A stretch of 44,018 nt of DNA from Escherichia phage vB_EcoP_B, in sequence record NC_047806.1; one strand, written 5' to 3'. Position 1 is the stretch's first letter; every line of letters starts with the position of its first letter. The notes below the pieces were generated by a model that ran no database searches, was not told where the DNA came from, and saw only the letters and a program-made list of their open reading frames with translations. A program made the translations under genes and the position numbers. Below are positions 20,270 to 25,632 of this stretch, piece by piece.

Positions 20270-20290
20270 CTCTTATAGTGTCAGCTAAAT
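20270..20290 (-). promoter_or_regulatory. phage RNAP promoter-like sequence in early region
   Basis: ATTTAGCTGACACTATAAGAG (SP6-like TGACAC, TATAAG instead of TATAGAAG). Confidence 0.4.
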
Positions 20291-20398
20291 AGTTTGTATG
20301 TAGTACCTAGCACTTCCTCACGAATCTGCGCAAATCGTAAGGAACATTTCAGGGTTACACCGTCTGAGAAGATGAAGTTATATTGCCTTTCCATCTTA

Positions 20399-20728
20399 TT
20401 ATTCCTCTTCTCCGCCTTCATACCAAACTACATCGCTGTCATTTGGTACATCATTATAAAGAGCTTCATAGATGCGAGCTTGTAGAATCTTGGTTACATC
20501 CTTCGTATCAGGAATCAAACCAGCATCTTCAAAATCAACATCAATGCCATCAGCAGCCATCACAGTAAAAATCTCACTGTAATAAACTGGCACCATGCTA
20601 TCTACAACCTCATGCAGTGCATCAGAGTAATCATCATCTTCACGAATCTCATCGTACTTGATGCGCTCGTTGAATGCTTCAACAGTTGCAGCCAGAAGGT
20701 TGTAGTAAGCGTTAGCGTTGCGTTCCAT
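20399..20728 (-). CDS. ocr: Ocr-like antirestriction DNA-mimic protein (gp0.3-like), 109 aa
   Basis: ORF track; block ERIKYDEIREDDDYSDALHEVVDSMVPVYYSEIFTVMAADGIDVDFEDAGLIPDTKDVTKILQARIYEAL closely parallels T7 Ocr as remembered; highly acidic. Confidence 0.7.
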   Translation of the reverse strand: MERNANAYYNLLAATVEAFNERIKYDEIREDDDYSDALHEVVDSMVPVYYSEIFTVMAADGIDVDFEDAGLIPDTKDVTKILQARIYEALYNDVPNDSDVVWYEGGEEE

Positions 20729-21388: not shown

Positions 21389-21530
21389 CCTCTTTAACCT
21401 CCTTTAATGTAGAACGTGCATATCTGTTAGCATCGCCGTAAGCGTTAGGCGTGTATTGCGAGGTTTCATGGCCAGCAAACCACGCATCGACTAAGAGTTG
21501 CTTTAGTTGGTCTTCAGTCAACTGAATCAT
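21375..21530 (-). CDS. early small protein (51 aa); not in ORF track
   Basis: ATG 21528-21530 with AAGGAG SD; overlaps both neighbours. Confidence 0.35.
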   Translation of the reverse strand: MIQLTEDQLKQLLVDAWFAGHETSQYTPNAYGDANRYARSTLKEVKEDVSA

Positions 21531-21699
21531 TACTTAACTCCTTCATCAAGTCACGTTTCTTGTTAACTGTATCGGTCCAACTTTCGTTCAGGAAGCGGTG
21601 ATACAGTGCCAACTCGTCATCTGTAAGTAATTCGTTGTTACGAATCATGTAGCATAACAGAGTGAAGAGAACGGACAGTTCACGGTTATTTAATGTCAT
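21514..21699 (-). CDS. first early protein (about 61 aa)
   Basis: ORF track 21514..21741 trimmed to ATG 21697-21699 with GAGGTG SD. Confidence 0.45.
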   Translation of the reverse strand: MTLNNRELSVLFTLLCYMIRNNELLTDDELALYHRFLNESWTDTVNKKRDLMKELSNDSVD

Positions 21700-21758
21700 A
21701 GTTAACACCTCATTCAATAAGTAATTAACCACGGCATACATAGGTTACACTAAGCAAA

Positions 21759-21808
21759 TTGTTAAAGAGCAAGGCAACATAAGTCACCTACCGTTTGGCT
21801 ATGTTGCC
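21759..21808 (-). promoter_or_regulatory. early-mRNA processing-site candidate (hairpin + GCTCTTTAACAAT)
   Basis: inverted repeat GGCAACAT/ATGTTGCC adjacent to the 13-mer. Confidence 0.4.
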
Positions 21809-21821
21809 TCCCGATGGCTGT

Positions 21822-21850
21822 AATGTACTACTAGCTTTTGCCTGTGTCAA
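21822..21850 (-). promoter_or_regulatory. candidate host sigma70 early promoter
   Basis: minus strand TTGACA - 17 nt - TACATT, upstream of first early gene. Confidence 0.5.
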
Positions 21851-21915
21851 CACTAAGTTTCACTAAGATAGACTATTTATGTGATACATGTCACAACTAC
21901 TAAGACAAACCTAGG

Positions 21916-22085
21916 TTGTCTAACGTGTGAGACTAAGGAAAAAAAAAAAAAAAAAAAAGCAATAGATACAGAGCTAGGATAGGCTAGATTGGCTAGGTAT
22001 TCCAAACGTGAAGGGGAGAAAAAGGAAAAAAAAAAAAAAAAAAAAGCAATAGATACAGAGCTAGGATAGGCTAGATTGGCTAGGT
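21916..22085. repeat. tandem direct repeat (two about 87-bp units) each containing an A20 tract; probable genome-terminus / terminal-repeat junction
   Basis: 62-bp exact repeat GG-A20-GCAATAGATACAGAGCTAGGATAGGCTAGATTGGCTAGGT at 21937-21998 and 22024-22085; lies between last late gene and first early gene. Confidence 0.7.
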
Positions 22086-22185
22086 TTCTGGTGTTCCTCC
22101 TACTGCATCTTATCACTATTACCTACTCTCAGCGGTCTACCGACCGCGACCTAATTGCATCTTATAGCTTTAGCTATGCAATCAC

Positions 22186-22320
22186 TAAGGTCTGGCACTA
22201 AGACTAACTAAGGTACACTACTAAGTTGATACTAAGCTAAGCACTAAGGCTTTAACTAAGGCAACCCACTAAGGCTAACCTAAGCCATCCATCAAGGAAT
22301 AACCTAAGGTACACGTGAGC
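22186..22320. repeat. dense array of CTAAG-containing short repeats (11 copies in 135 bp)
   Basis: cactaagg, cactaaga, aactaagg, ... ; further copies scattered 21845-23060. Confidence 0.7.
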
Positions 22321-22847
22321 GAGTGAACGGAGCGCAAGCGGAGTGAGGAGCAGTGAGTGAAGCGTAGCGAAACGAACAGATAGCCCACACCCTCATGCCC
22401 TGTCAAACGCTCAGGAATGGCCCTAAAACGGCCTGTGTAAGCCCTAAGCGGTTGCACTAAGGCAATCACCTTGTCCAATACTAAGGCGCGCCCTAGCGCT
22501 TCCTAGGTGTTCTCCTTGTGCAGCCACTAAGAGCAGACCTCGGCAAGCTCTAGGCCACCCGTCGAGCTTCCTGCGGCAGCAGGTTGAAGACGGACCAGCC
22601 CAGCCCAATTCCCAAGCCAACCGCAGCGCGGCCCCATATGGGGGAAATCCGGCGAGGGCGAGGGCGAGAGAGCTGACACACGCCTATATCAAAATTTTGA
22701 CTTTGGTTACTTTGTGACCACCTTTGGTCTGCCCTTTTGGTTACACTAAGATTATTCCTGCTAAGTACAGGTACACCAGCAGTGGGCCATAGATACATGC
22801 TGTGCATAAGAGGGCTAACAGTAGGTCTTTCATGTTACCTCATTTGA

Positions 22848-23003
22848 TTACACTAAGTCGAATCCATTGGGTTGCTTCAGGTAAGCCTGTACAGTTCCAC
22901 CAAGAACCTTCTGGCTAGCCAGTGCAGACTCTTCAGTGTCATGTATCTTCCTGAGTACCTTACGTTTGAATGGGCCGACTCCATAAGTATGAATCCAAAT
23001 CAT
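22848..23003 (-). CDS. small ORF (51 aa) downstream of tailspike; tentative
   Basis: ATG 23001-23003 with strong SD AAAGGAGG; stop lies in a TTACACTAAG repeat. Confidence 0.3.
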   Translation of the reverse strand: MIWIHTYGVGPFKRKVLRKIHDTEESALASQKVLGGTVQAYLKQPNGFDLV

Positions 23004-23196
23004 CAAACCTCCTTTGGGTTGCACTAAGGGCCAACCTAAGCCAGCCCTTGTGCAGACTAAGTGTTACTGCTTCGCAGACGATGCAGAGGCCTTACTCAAT
23101 ACTCTACGTTGAACATCCTTGGCAATGGCATATGCCTGCTTAGGGTCACGTCCTGATTGAATAAGCTCTTCTGTGTTCTGGAGTACAGCAGCTTGC

Positions 23197-25632
23197 TTAA
23201 CTGGTTTTATTAGTGGCATACATCTCCTCTAACTTGTCTAAACGATAACGAGTATAAGCAGCCTCCAAGATTAAGATTTCACTATATCTAACACCAAACT
23301 GACCTTCTTCGAAGGAGACAATGCCGAAGTCGATTGCATCTAACCCTTCGGATGCAAAAGCAGCTACAATGTCTTGTGCCAATACACCAAAGTGAGTGTG
23401 ATGCACACCACTAGACATCTCTCCAATCAACTTGTACTGCTTGAAGGCAACCTTGCCCCATGCCTTTAGTACACCCTCATCAATACCTTGTGATCCATAC
23501 TTATGAGTGGCATCAGACGTAATAATAGGGTCACTTGTAAGATGGATAGTAGTGAATCTATTACGAGGGCCGCCAGCAGGATACACGTTATCATTGTATG
23601 GCATGATAGCCCCGCTTTGGAACAAGTGCTCATTGGCATTATATACTGCGCGTCTAGAAGTACTAGAACCTGCTCCATGTAAGGTAATTTGCGCACCGGT
23701 ATCTGCTGCTGTACCCTCTCCACCAGAGATGATGACACGTTGGGCAGTTGGGTTATCCGTTGGTATAGTCTTACCAATGAACCCATATTCACCTTCCATC
23801 AGCATCTCTGAGCGAATATTAGCACTTGTACTTGCCTTCAGGGTAAGGTGTTCGACAGTCATATCTGCGGCAACTACCTCTCCTGATAAGTGAAGTGGAG
23901 CAGGAATAGTACGAATACCATCAGTACCCATGAAGGTAGGTATAGCCTGACCCGGAGTTGCACCATATGTAAACTTACGAGATACACGATTGTCATTTGC
24001 AATCTGCATCTTATAGCAGTATATATCAGTGGGGTGTCCATGACCTTTAAATGGGTCTTTATCTTTGTTGTCACCATAAGTCATTGGGTTGAAATGGTTT
24101 TCTCCACCAAAGATATAGTAAATGTAGCTGTCTTTAACTACTACCGAACCTACACCTACACTAGAGTTCACAATGTCACCCTGATAGATTTGGTCTGTGA
24201 TGTTAACCCATTCAATGTCATCTGCATTCCACTTGTTTACATTCAATCGTGCATAGAAGGTACGAGGATAAGATGCCTTGTAACGATCATCGGGTGCACC
24301 TGCTTCCCATTCATTTTCTGCACGTTCTGAACCAAACATAATAAGGTCATCTCCTACTTTAGCAAAAGGTAAGGTAGTATGATGAACATTATGTGGAAAT
24401 CTTAGTGACTCCCAAGTTTGACCTATATCTCTACTACGATGCAGAGAGCTTCCTAGTCGATCGCCACGAGTACCACGAGTGATAAGGTACAATACACCGT
24501 CATAGTACTTGATGCATGGCTCTGCCGCATCTGGTTCATACTCAGATGGTATCTGACGACGAACATAATTAGATGGGCTATTGAAAGCATCAGGGAAGTA
24601 GAAAAGCCCAACTTCTCGTGGAGCTACATCACCTTGATGATAGCCCATAACAAAGCCATTGTTATCAATAGTAGCAAAGCTATGCACCTCTGTGACACGA
24701 GTGATTAGACCAAGATCTGTCTTACGCCAAGGAGATTTATGGAAAGAAGTACCCATGTGCCAACTCTTTCCAGCGTTATTCAAATCTGAAGTCTGCTGGT
24801 TAGGTGTAAGAACCGTGAAGTTGTCCTTATCTATTACTGTTGCAACCTTCATATCACCAGATACACCTGTTACCGCAGAGTTAGAGAAGTTAACAAAATC
24901 ACCAACGAAGAGTCCGTGATCAGGTACATGGATTGTTGCATATCTCTGATTTGCAGCCTTAGTGATACCACCAGTAAGATGCAGACTACGAGACATAGGG
25001 CGATCCCACAATGCACAATTGGTTAGTGCGTTCTTGGCTAAAGTACGTGTTTCAATCATGGCAAACAGACGGTTGCGACATACACCCATACTCATACAAT
25101 GATAGTTCACTGTAGGGTAATCTGGATGCAGATCAGTTAACCACTCTGGAGTAGACCATGTTTGACCATCGTCACCAGACTTAACCCATGATACATGCAG
25201 ACGACTAACACCATGACGGTCGCTACCCATGTAAGGTGCATATATCACGTTCTCATATACAAACGCTTTGTCTTGAGGCCAAGCATTGTAATAAGGGTTA
25301 TCCGTGATTTTATAGAGTTCACCATTGATAAAACCTTTACTCACATAGTAAAGAGGTTGACCTGCTAAACGTTCCCATACGAAGCGGGTGTTATAGAATC
25401 GCTCCATATCAGGTAAAGATGATACTTTGTAAGTAGCACCAGCACCGTCAATTCTCTTACCTGAAGCCATCGCTGCATTTACTGCATCTTGGTCGTTTGT
25501 CTTACCATCACCTTTGGCTCCAAAATCTTTAAGCGATACAACCTCGGTGAGCTTGTCATCCAAGTTACGCCAGATTGCACCTGCTATTTTACTCTTGAAT
25601 TTAACTAATGAAGAACCTAGTCTTTGAATCAT
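23197..25632 (-). CDS. tailspike with endosialidase (endo-N-acetylneuraminidase) catalytic domain, 811 aa
   Basis: ORF track; two sialidase Asp-boxes SGDDGQTW and SRDIGQTW; C-terminal chaperone-like segment; AAAGGAGG SD; last structural gene before genome end as in K1E/K1-5-type phages (from memory). Confidence 0.8.
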   Translation of the reverse strand: MIQRLGSSLVKFKSKIAGAIWRNLDDKLTEVVSLKDFGAKGDGKTNDQDAVNAAMASGKRIDGAGATYKVSSLPDMERFYNTRFVWERLAGQPLYYVSKGFINGELYKITDNPYYNAWPQDKAFVYENVIYAPYMGSDRHGVSRLHVSWVKSGDDGQTWSTPEWLTDLHPDYPTVNYHCMSMGVCRNRLFAMIETRTLAKNALTNCALWDRPMSRSLHLTGGITKAANQRYATIHVPDHGLFVGDFVNFSNSAVTGVSGDMKVATVIDKDNFTVLTPNQQTSDLNNAGKSWHMGTSFHKSPWRKTDLGLITRVTEVHSFATIDNNGFVMGYHQGDVAPREVGLFYFPDAFNSPSNYVRRQIPSEYEPDAAEPCIKYYDGVLYLITRGTRGDRLGSSLHRSRDIGQTWESLRFPHNVHHTTLPFAKVGDDLIMFGSERAENEWEAGAPDDRYKASYPRTFYARLNVNKWNADDIEWVNITDQIYQGDIVNSSVGVGSVVVKDSYIYYIFGGENHFNPMTYGDNKDKDPFKGHGHPTDIYCYKMQIANDNRVSRKFTYGATPGQAIPTFMGTDGIRTIPAPLHLSGEVVAADMTVEHLTLKASTSANIRSEMLMEGEYGFIGKTIPTDNPTAQRVIISGGEGTAADTGAQITLHGAGSSTSRRAVYNANEHLFQSGAIMPYNDNVYPAGGPRNRFTTIHLTSDPIITSDATHKYGSQGIDEGVLKAWGKVAFKQYKLIGEMSSGVHHTHFGVLAQDIVAAFASEGLDAIDFGIVSFEEGQFGVRYSEILILEAAYTRYRLDKLEEMYATNKTS

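Follow-up and report, generated by a model that had tools for sequence, protein, structure and literature searches.

The genome record of Escherichia phage vB_EcoP_B (NC_047806.1; 44,018 nucleotides, analysed over its whole length and referred to here as the window) carries a dense cluster of the pentamer CTAAG around and within the terminal repeat (TR) of the phage. This cluster is real, and chance is excluded as its origin. On the coding strand the repeats share a heptamer core and follow a regular lattice, and we consider the odds to be about even that this lattice is, taken as a whole explanation, a multivalent, low-information protein-binding platform and concatemer-junction module, the counterpart in the SP6 group of the short-repeat arrays SRL/SRR of phages T7 and T3.

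On the plus strand 25 copies of CTAAG were counted in 21845–23060, and on the minus strand of the same region none; with a further plus-strand copy at 21750, 26 of 26 copies lie in one orientation. The plus-strand expectation per 1216 bp was 1.1 copies from the remainder of the genome and 1.35–3.15 from first-order Markov models, dinucleotide shuffles of the region itself (n = 2000) gave 3.2 ± 1.7 copies with a maximum of 9, and the densest other stretch of 1216 bp held 4 copies on the plus strand and 6 on the minus strand. These figures bear out the first-pass annotation of this DNA, which had reported at least 21 copies in about 1.2 kb against roughly one expected by chance, 11 of them in 22186–22320 (11 were counted in 22185–22308), and which had proposed a genome-wide count against a shuffled control as a check. 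When strand-specific k-mers of the terminal zone were ranked against the remaining genome, CTTAG, CTTAGT and CTTAGTG on the coding strand came directly after poly-T runs, with CTTAGTG observed 12 times for 0.3 expected. Because the genes lie on the minus strand, CTTAGTG is the coding-strand unit and CTAAG its plus-strand view; written more fully the unit is (C)CTTAGTG, in which CTTAG is followed by T in 20 of the 26 copies and then by G in 13.

A 3-kb query around the cluster matched K1E, K1-5, mutPK1A2 and many other Vectrevirus genomes at 84–96% identity, and every long open reading frame (ORF) of the window is carried by the minus strand. Judged from these two observations, the window is a complete Vectrevirus genome (K1E/K1-5-like; SP6 group, Molineuxvirinae) in reverse-complemented and circularly permuted, collapsed form. 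Its 875-amino-acid RNA polymerase ORF and 12 promoters of the ATTTACTGGACACTATAGAAG type place it in the T7 supergroup. BLAST comparison with the annotated 286-bp 'redundant repeat' of mutPK1A2 and with both ends of K1E located the TR at 22381–22668, with an uncertainty of ~4 bp at its right boundary; since the assembly is circularly collapsed, only a single copy is present. As the mutPK1A2 repeat and both K1E ends map to this interval, the CTAAG cluster straddles the collapsed TR copy, in line with the earlier proposal that the motif flanks the genome terminus. The left end of the genome corresponds to 22668 and is read downwards on the minus strand, and the sequence above 22668 is the right genome end; positions are given below also as g, the number of bases from the left end, with g1 at 22668. 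Exact TR lengths in relatives are 234 bp (K1-5), 174 bp (SP6), 262 bp (phD2B) and 283 bp (RoP3a).

In coding-strand order, six copies precede the TR, four lie in its right half, 11 form an array after it and five follow near the early promoters. The pre-repeat, SRR-like set (22746–23061, minus strand; plus-strand CTAAG starts at 23057, 23036, 23024, 22853, 22761 and 22746) consists of an intergenic triplet at g-392, g-371 and g-359 and of single copies at g-188, g-96 and g-81, and is sparser than the main array. The four in-repeat copies (22444–22531, minus strand; g138–221) start on the plus strand at 22444, 22457, 22481 and 22527. The main, SRL-like array (22185–22308, minus strand; g361–484) packs its 11 CTTAG(TG) copies into 124 bp, mostly at 10–13 bp spacing. 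Four promoter-zone copies (21853–21937, minus strand; g732–812) are conserved in K1E and mutPK1A2; one of them overlaps the -10 hexamer (TATCTT) of the upstream of two early promoters and another abuts the -35 hexamer (TTGACA) of the downstream, A1-like promoter. The last copy, CTTAGTGTAACC (21750–21754, minus strand; g915), precedes the first gene (ATG at 21699; g970) by 55 nt.

Conservation of the lattice and drift of the motif in Molineuxvirinae

Fourteen junctions anchored on the genome end were compared, namely those of the window, K1-5, SP6, RoP3a, CC2, CrRp3, PST_H2, a Proteus phage, Klebsiella VR702, P433.1, three IMG/VR contigs and Lelliottia phD2B. In 13 of these (the window counted) the interval from -750 to +1300 contains 17–27 copies of CTTAG on the coding strand against 1–4 on the other strand, and all 13, that is the window and 12 others, possess a dense array of 7–11 copies after the TR. 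Phages of Escherichia, Salmonella, Citrobacter, Raoultella, Klebsiella and Proteus share this layout. A comparison with the ends of SP6, K1E and K1-5 had been suggested in the first-pass annotation; while the K1E ends served to locate the TR, the same picture recurs in K1-5 and SP6, with CTTAGTG as the top enriched heptamer, and the layout is likewise present in Raoultella phage P3a and Proteus phage PM116. Copies inside the TR number 1 to 4 in the other CTTAG-type genomes, and the pre-repeat triplet (spacings of 21–22 and 12–13 bp) reappears in K1-5, SP6, RoP3a, VR702, PTGBLG5 and IMG_L015. The distance of the pre-repeat copies from the genome end, and so from the cut site, differs widely among relatives.

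Alignment of the 13 arrays gave an identity to the window of 91% in core columns and 64% in spacer columns (Mann-Whitney p = 3e-12), a contrast to be read with the tendency of aligners to line up cores. By this measure the heptamer cores are evidently under selection. Spacings of up to 16 bp within arrays (n = 92) fall in the range of 10–13 bp in 88 cases (mean 11.65, median 12), which corresponds to a lattice of ~11.7 bp. The longer spacings cluster at 21–24 and 33–35 bp, approximately two and three times the unit, and the lattice is therefore kept even where a copy has decayed.

The remaining junction, that of Lelliottia phD2B, has no CTTAG array; the slot after its TR is taken instead by CATGATG repeats, nine copies of which are found in the terminal zones. 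Three Klebsiella Molineuxvirinae have CATAGTG in the array slot, and in one of these, K13PH07C1S, the interval from -400 to +700 about the end holds 9 of the 11 CATAGTG copies of the genome, all of them on a single strand. As these lineages carry their forms in the same slot, the repeat family can be described as C[TA]TAGTG with the variant CATGATG. The block on the cleavage side of the junction (see below) is nearly invariant across CTTAGTG, CATAGTG and CATGATG phages, and lineage-specific drift of a motif beside a fixed cleavage block is the pattern expected of sites co-evolving with their reader; it argues against a conserved host factor in that role.

Two further observations concern the phages with divergent motifs. 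Positions 178–650 of phD2B hold a second repeat, ACACTAG(G), alongside CATGATG, with the cleavage block and the heptamer ATCTGTT at the TR boundary unchanged. In K13PH07C1S, five perfect DnaA boxes (TGTGGATAA; five of the six copies in the genome) occur in one orientation inside the TR (+62 to +213); boxes of this kind were also noted in two further Klebsiella relatives (L029 and L030), and the CATAGTG array adjoins the boxes. These boxes may recruit or titrate host DnaA at the phage ends.

Comparison with T7 and T3 and candidate roles at the concatemer junction

The short-repeat arrays SRL/SRR beside the 160-bp TR of T7 were reportedly described by Dunn and Studier in 1983. With the T7 sequence as a control, we counted 13 copies of CCTAAAG in the terminal zones, every one of them on the coding strand; they are placed in the TR (18, 42 and 61), downstream of it (176–333, mostly 13 bp apart) and ahead of the right TR. 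The only ATCTGTT of the T7 genome, at nt 161, follows the TR directly. In T3, whose TR is 231 bp long, ATCTGTT lies at 232 and C[CT]TAAAG is found in the right half of the TR (130–182), directly after it (246–289) and before the right TR.

The window resembles T7 in having arrays of a 7-bp core in a single orientation before, inside and after the TR, in the enrichment of that core (12 copies for 0.30 expected, compared with 13 for 0.29 in T7), in the regular lattice on which the copies sit, and in a post-repeat array that follows ATCTGTT at the TR boundary and has early host-type promoters downstream. The two differ in the coding-strand core, CCTAAAG in T7 and CTTAGTG in the window, and in the period, which is mostly 13 bp in T7 and 12–13 bp in T3 but ~11.7 bp in the group of the window. 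In-repeat copies occupy the left part of the TR in T7 and the right half in the window, and ATCTGTT is separated from the array by 8 bp in T7 and by 66 bp in the window. The phage promoters phiOL and phiOR lie near the T7 ends and are present in T3, whereas the window has none near its ends, and the conserved block on the cleavage side is unrelated in sequence between T7 and the window. T3 offers the closest layout, with in-repeat copies in the right half of the TR, ATCTGTT at the same boundary, an array directly after it at 12–13 bp spacing and four copies before the right TR; it differs from the window in its core, in a post-repeat array of only four copies and in the presence of both phiOL and phiOR.

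Local excess, placement on both sides of and inside the TR, orientation, spacing, order relative to ATCTGTT and occurrence in a T7-supergroup phage are thus all shared with the SRL/SRR arrays of T7 and T3, and the positional and architectural analogy to T7 drawn in the first-pass annotation is supported, more strongly than that annotation could reveal, by the orientation, the ~12-bp lattice, the placement about the TR and the ATCTGTT order. The coding-strand core is not shared, being CTTAGTG in the window and CATAGTG or CATGATG in its sisters instead of CCTAAAG. The annotation had also stated that T7 carries arrays of a related heptamer, and of this the arrays were verified in the T7 sequence; the relatedness is not established, because ungapped comparison gives 4 of 7 matches in either orientation, and the likeness of CTAAG to CTAAAG exists only between opposite strands. 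Since the coding-strand cores differ, the claim is one of analogous architecture and not of membership by sequence. As T7, T3 and the Molineuxvirinae share the arrangement of their junctions and the ATCTGTT boundary, the whole junction module is, to judge from these genomes, common to the T7 supergroup. Features of this kind have been on record since T7 was sequenced, and the lattice, core conservation, motif variants and ATCTGTT boundary add useful detail to it without defining a new category.

We propose that the lattice is one part of a conserved concatemer-junction module around and within the TR, which comprises, in the order of the genome, short repeats, a highly conserved block that is the probable cleavage and recognition site, the TR (a palindrome close to its beginning, short repeats in the right half), ATCTGTT, the dense array and the early promoters. 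The lattice would bind an oligomeric protein acting on replicative concatemers; the small terminase gp39, together with the large terminase gp40, is the candidate that most readily suggests itself. Packaging of T7 begins with the right end, and the pre-repeat copies would accordingly lie on the side where packaging initiates and the post-repeat array where the motor arrives before the terminal cut. The pre-repeat copies may thus help to start packaging at the right end of one genome, and the post-repeat array may help the arriving motor and nuclease to stop and cut at the left end, in a position like that of cosQ, while polymerase pausing at ATCTGTT would mark the TR boundary for repeat duplication. 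A multivalent platform fits the many weak, co-oriented and evenly spaced cores on both sides of the cut and their lineage-specific drift. In phage lambda the R sites of cosB together with cosQ, and in SPP1 the pacL and pacR boxes, are short repeated sites that flank a sequence-specific cut and serve the initiation and termination of packaging; those sites are few (2–4), longer and demonstrated to bind the small terminase, whereas the window has ~26 very short cores, for which binding is a prediction. At the T7 junction, pacB is the recognition site of the small terminase gp18, and gp19 cleaves at pacC (PMC9860248).

Several observations weigh against this proposal. The small terminase of phD2B, at ~70% identity, is only slightly more diverged than those of SP6 and PM116 (73–79%), and it differs at few N-terminal positions, with two shared substitutions (EDQVG and AVT) in two lineages that have other motifs; across the two or three independent lineages compared, no clear covariation of the small terminase with motif type was seen. 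A presence/absence screen of 64 window ORFs for those kept in CTTAGTG phages and missing in phD2B returned an Ocr-like protein, an early peptide of 37–46 amino acids, a gp19-like protein and a lipoprotein/spanin-like ORF, and among these no credible DNA binder. The wide variation in the distance to the cut site implies that exact geometry is not required on the pre-repeat side, and the five copies among or overlapping the early promoters hint at a second or different role. We know of no established function for the T7 arrays either, the concatemer-processing role included. A more specific form of the same proposal, which we put forward only tentatively, is that the lattice is a specificity code read by a phage protein (the small terminase or a partner), drifting from CTTAGTG to CATAGTG to CATGATG while the cleavage block and ATCTGTT stay fixed, with the pre- and post-repeat arrays serving packaging initiation and termination, respectively.

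The promoter-zone copies also invite an explanation at the start of infection, according to which the repeats, being on the first ~1 kb to enter the cell, are the target of a protein, supplied by the host or delivered with the virion, whose task is either to protect the leading end or to tune or silence the host-polymerase promoters nearby. The contacts of two of the five copies with the -10 and -35 hexamers, the conservation of promoter-zone copies in K1E and mutPK1A2 and the position of the main array between the genome end and the promoters are all in keeping with such a role. We nevertheless judge it unlikely, as six copies are at the right genome end, which enters last, and four are inside the TR, the arrays of T7 and T3 also occur on both sides of the TR, and the change of motif in Lelliottia and Klebsiella phages would be left unaccounted for by a host factor conserved among enterobacteria.

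A replication-related function, in which the repeats act as iteron-like or primase/initiator sites at a terminal origin or aid the annealing of TRs into concatemers, appears more doubtful still. In T7, secondary origins are situated close to phiOL and phiOR at the genome ends, and the co-oriented DnaA boxes beside the CATAGTG array in the TR of Klebsiella relatives point in the same direction, but DnaA boxes are absent from the window, and the 2 kb at either genome end contain no phage promoter from which an origin of the T7 type could be primed. A 12-bp lattice of 7-bp cores is also unlike classical iterons of 17–22 bp, and the array has no AT-rich unwinding element beside it, unless one counts the poly-T insertions, which are apparently recent.

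We attach similarly little weight to the possibility that the repeats have no sequence-specific reader and are products of slippage or duplication, either kept for a bulk property such as bendability or stops in several frames or not selected at all. The copy number of 7 to 11 among close relatives and the ease with which single point changes make or destroy copies would suit such an origin, as would the TAG and TAA contained in CTTAG and CTAAG and the two small ORFs that end on the motif. It accounts poorly for cores that are far better conserved than spacers across genera, for the strict orientation and maintained lattice and for arrays that persist in lineages diverged by ~20–30% in their proteins, and only 2 of the 26 copies touch an ORF end. 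A chance cluster or an assembly artefact at the circularisation point, for which one might cite a peculiar duplication of 87 bp in the same region that contains two exact A20 runs and is in no other phage record, can for practical purposes be set aside, given the statistics above and the arrays in genomes that were sequenced independently, among them K1-5, SP6 and RoP3a, which are linear with defined ends.

Two other candidates were tried and rejected. The repeats slightly resemble CACTATAG promoter cores; however, the 12 phage promoters of the genome follow ATTTACTGGACACTATAGAAG (21-bp consensus), the 2 kb at either end are free of them, and the promoter differences between SP6, PM116 and the window are not mirrored in the repeats. 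A structured RNA or tRNA was discarded after no Rfam covariance model matched in 21500–23400 at E <= 1.

Neighbouring elements of the junction

The most conserved non-coding block of the region (22632–22717, ~85 bp, minus strand) comprises TCACAAAGTAACCAAAGTCAAAATTTTGATATAGGCGTGTGTCAGCTCT, which runs for 49 bp up to the genome end, then the left end of the genome, where the TR opens with CTCGCCCTCGCCCTCGCCGG, and then the palindrome CCCCATATGGGG (22632–22643; g26–37); it also includes the inverted repeat TGGTCACAAAGTAACCA and CTCGCC repeats. The block is near-identical across the 14 Molineuxvirinae junctions and is the only non-coding part of the query that can still be aligned with the Proteus, Klebsiella and Lelliottia phages. 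T7 carries CCCCCATAGGGGG at nt 27–39, at the same distance from its end. We regard the block as the likely candidate for the cleavage and recognition site. A scan of viral contigs with the conserved block yielded 10 loci, of which three were usable.

At the right boundary of the TR, ATCTGTT (22375–22381, minus strand; g288–294) is present in all 14 aligned junctions, as it is in T7 and T3. In three Klebsiella phages examined apart from these 14, the exact heptamer was not found in the stretches read, and K13PH07C1S has ATCTGTC at the corresponding place. For T7 RNA polymerase, ATCTGTT is the class II pause and termination signal, and it has been described at the concatemer junction of T7 (bioRxiv 10.1101/2021.01.11.426313; PMC11617373). 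With this CJ/PTH-type signal the window shares the exact non-template ATCTGTT at the junction and a T-rich stretch after it; the signal is a neighbouring element distinct from the repeats. Its conserved position suggests that the TR boundary may be set by polymerase pausing throughout the T7 supergroup. Between ATCTGTT and the main array, 22309–22374 (66 bp, minus strand) reads as a C/T-rich spacer with CTCACT-type repeats on the coding strand.

Two sigma-70-type early promoters (21822–21894, minus strand) run from 21894 to 21865 and from 21850 to 21822. The second, TTGACA-17-TACATT, shares TTACAGCCATCG(A/G)GAGG with the T7 early promoter A1, and its -10 and start region, TTACAGCCATCGGGAGG, nearly matches TTACAGCCATCGAGAGG of that promoter. 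Upstream of them on the coding strand, the 87-bp duplication mentioned above is a tandem one at 21929–22085, with an exact A20 run in each copy (T20 on the coding strand) where K1E and mutPK1A2 have only TTT or TCTT. It was found in none of 77 matching phage records; the early leader may have expanded naturally in recent times, or the duplication may be an artefact of assembly or library preparation.

Two small ORFs before the TR end Leu-Val-stop on CTTAGTG+TAA. One, of 51 amino acids from ATG (22848–23003, minus strand), matches phrog_3955 (E 9e-24); the other encodes a hydrophobic peptide of 30 amino acids (22741–22833, minus strand), has no PHROG family match and is doubtful as a gene. The first-pass annotation had held that the motif supplies the stop codons of both, and both do end on the motif; as they end CTTAGTG+TAA, the stop codon is the TAA adjoining the heptamer and not CTAAG itself. 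With 2 of 26 copies involved, the coincidence looks incidental. The same right end of the genome encodes an 811-amino-acid endosialidase tailspike (23197–25632, minus strand), which marks a K1-capsule-specific phage, followed by small conserved ORFs, phrog_2423 at 23064–23219 and the phrog_3955 member just described. The early peptide returned by the presence/absence screen, MERQYNFIFSDGVTLKCSLRFAQIREEVLGTTYKLFS (20281–20421, minus strand; genome coordinates 2248–2388), has 74–97% identity in K1-5, SP6, PM116 and RoP3a and was not found in phD2B by tblastn.

Implications for T7-type phages

In T7-type phages short exact terminal repeats are made anew at each packaging event, and recognition of the junction is only partly understood; the short-repeat arrays beside the TR have been familiar since the T7 sequence of the early 1980s. 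A literature search on such arrays found nothing on repeats of the SP6 group, the original SP6 and K1-5 genome papers lying outside that search. For the window alone, the cluster is an ordinary and expected feature of its phage family. K1E, K1-5 and SP6 serve in therapy and as engineering chassis, and knowledge of which junction sequences to keep matters for genome rebooting, the design of transducing particles and correct annotation of genome ends; SP6 has already been rebooted (PMC9860248).

For the family as a whole, the comparisons indicate that the SP6/K1E group has a junction architecture of the T7 type with a different core, and that its cores appear to be selected and held on a fixed lattice. 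The variants of one or two bases that sister lineages carry in the same place are natural material for swap and deletion experiments. If the repeats do constitute a specificity code, swaps of array and reader among K1E-, Klebsiella- and Lelliottia-type phages would make the function of SRL/SRR directly testable.

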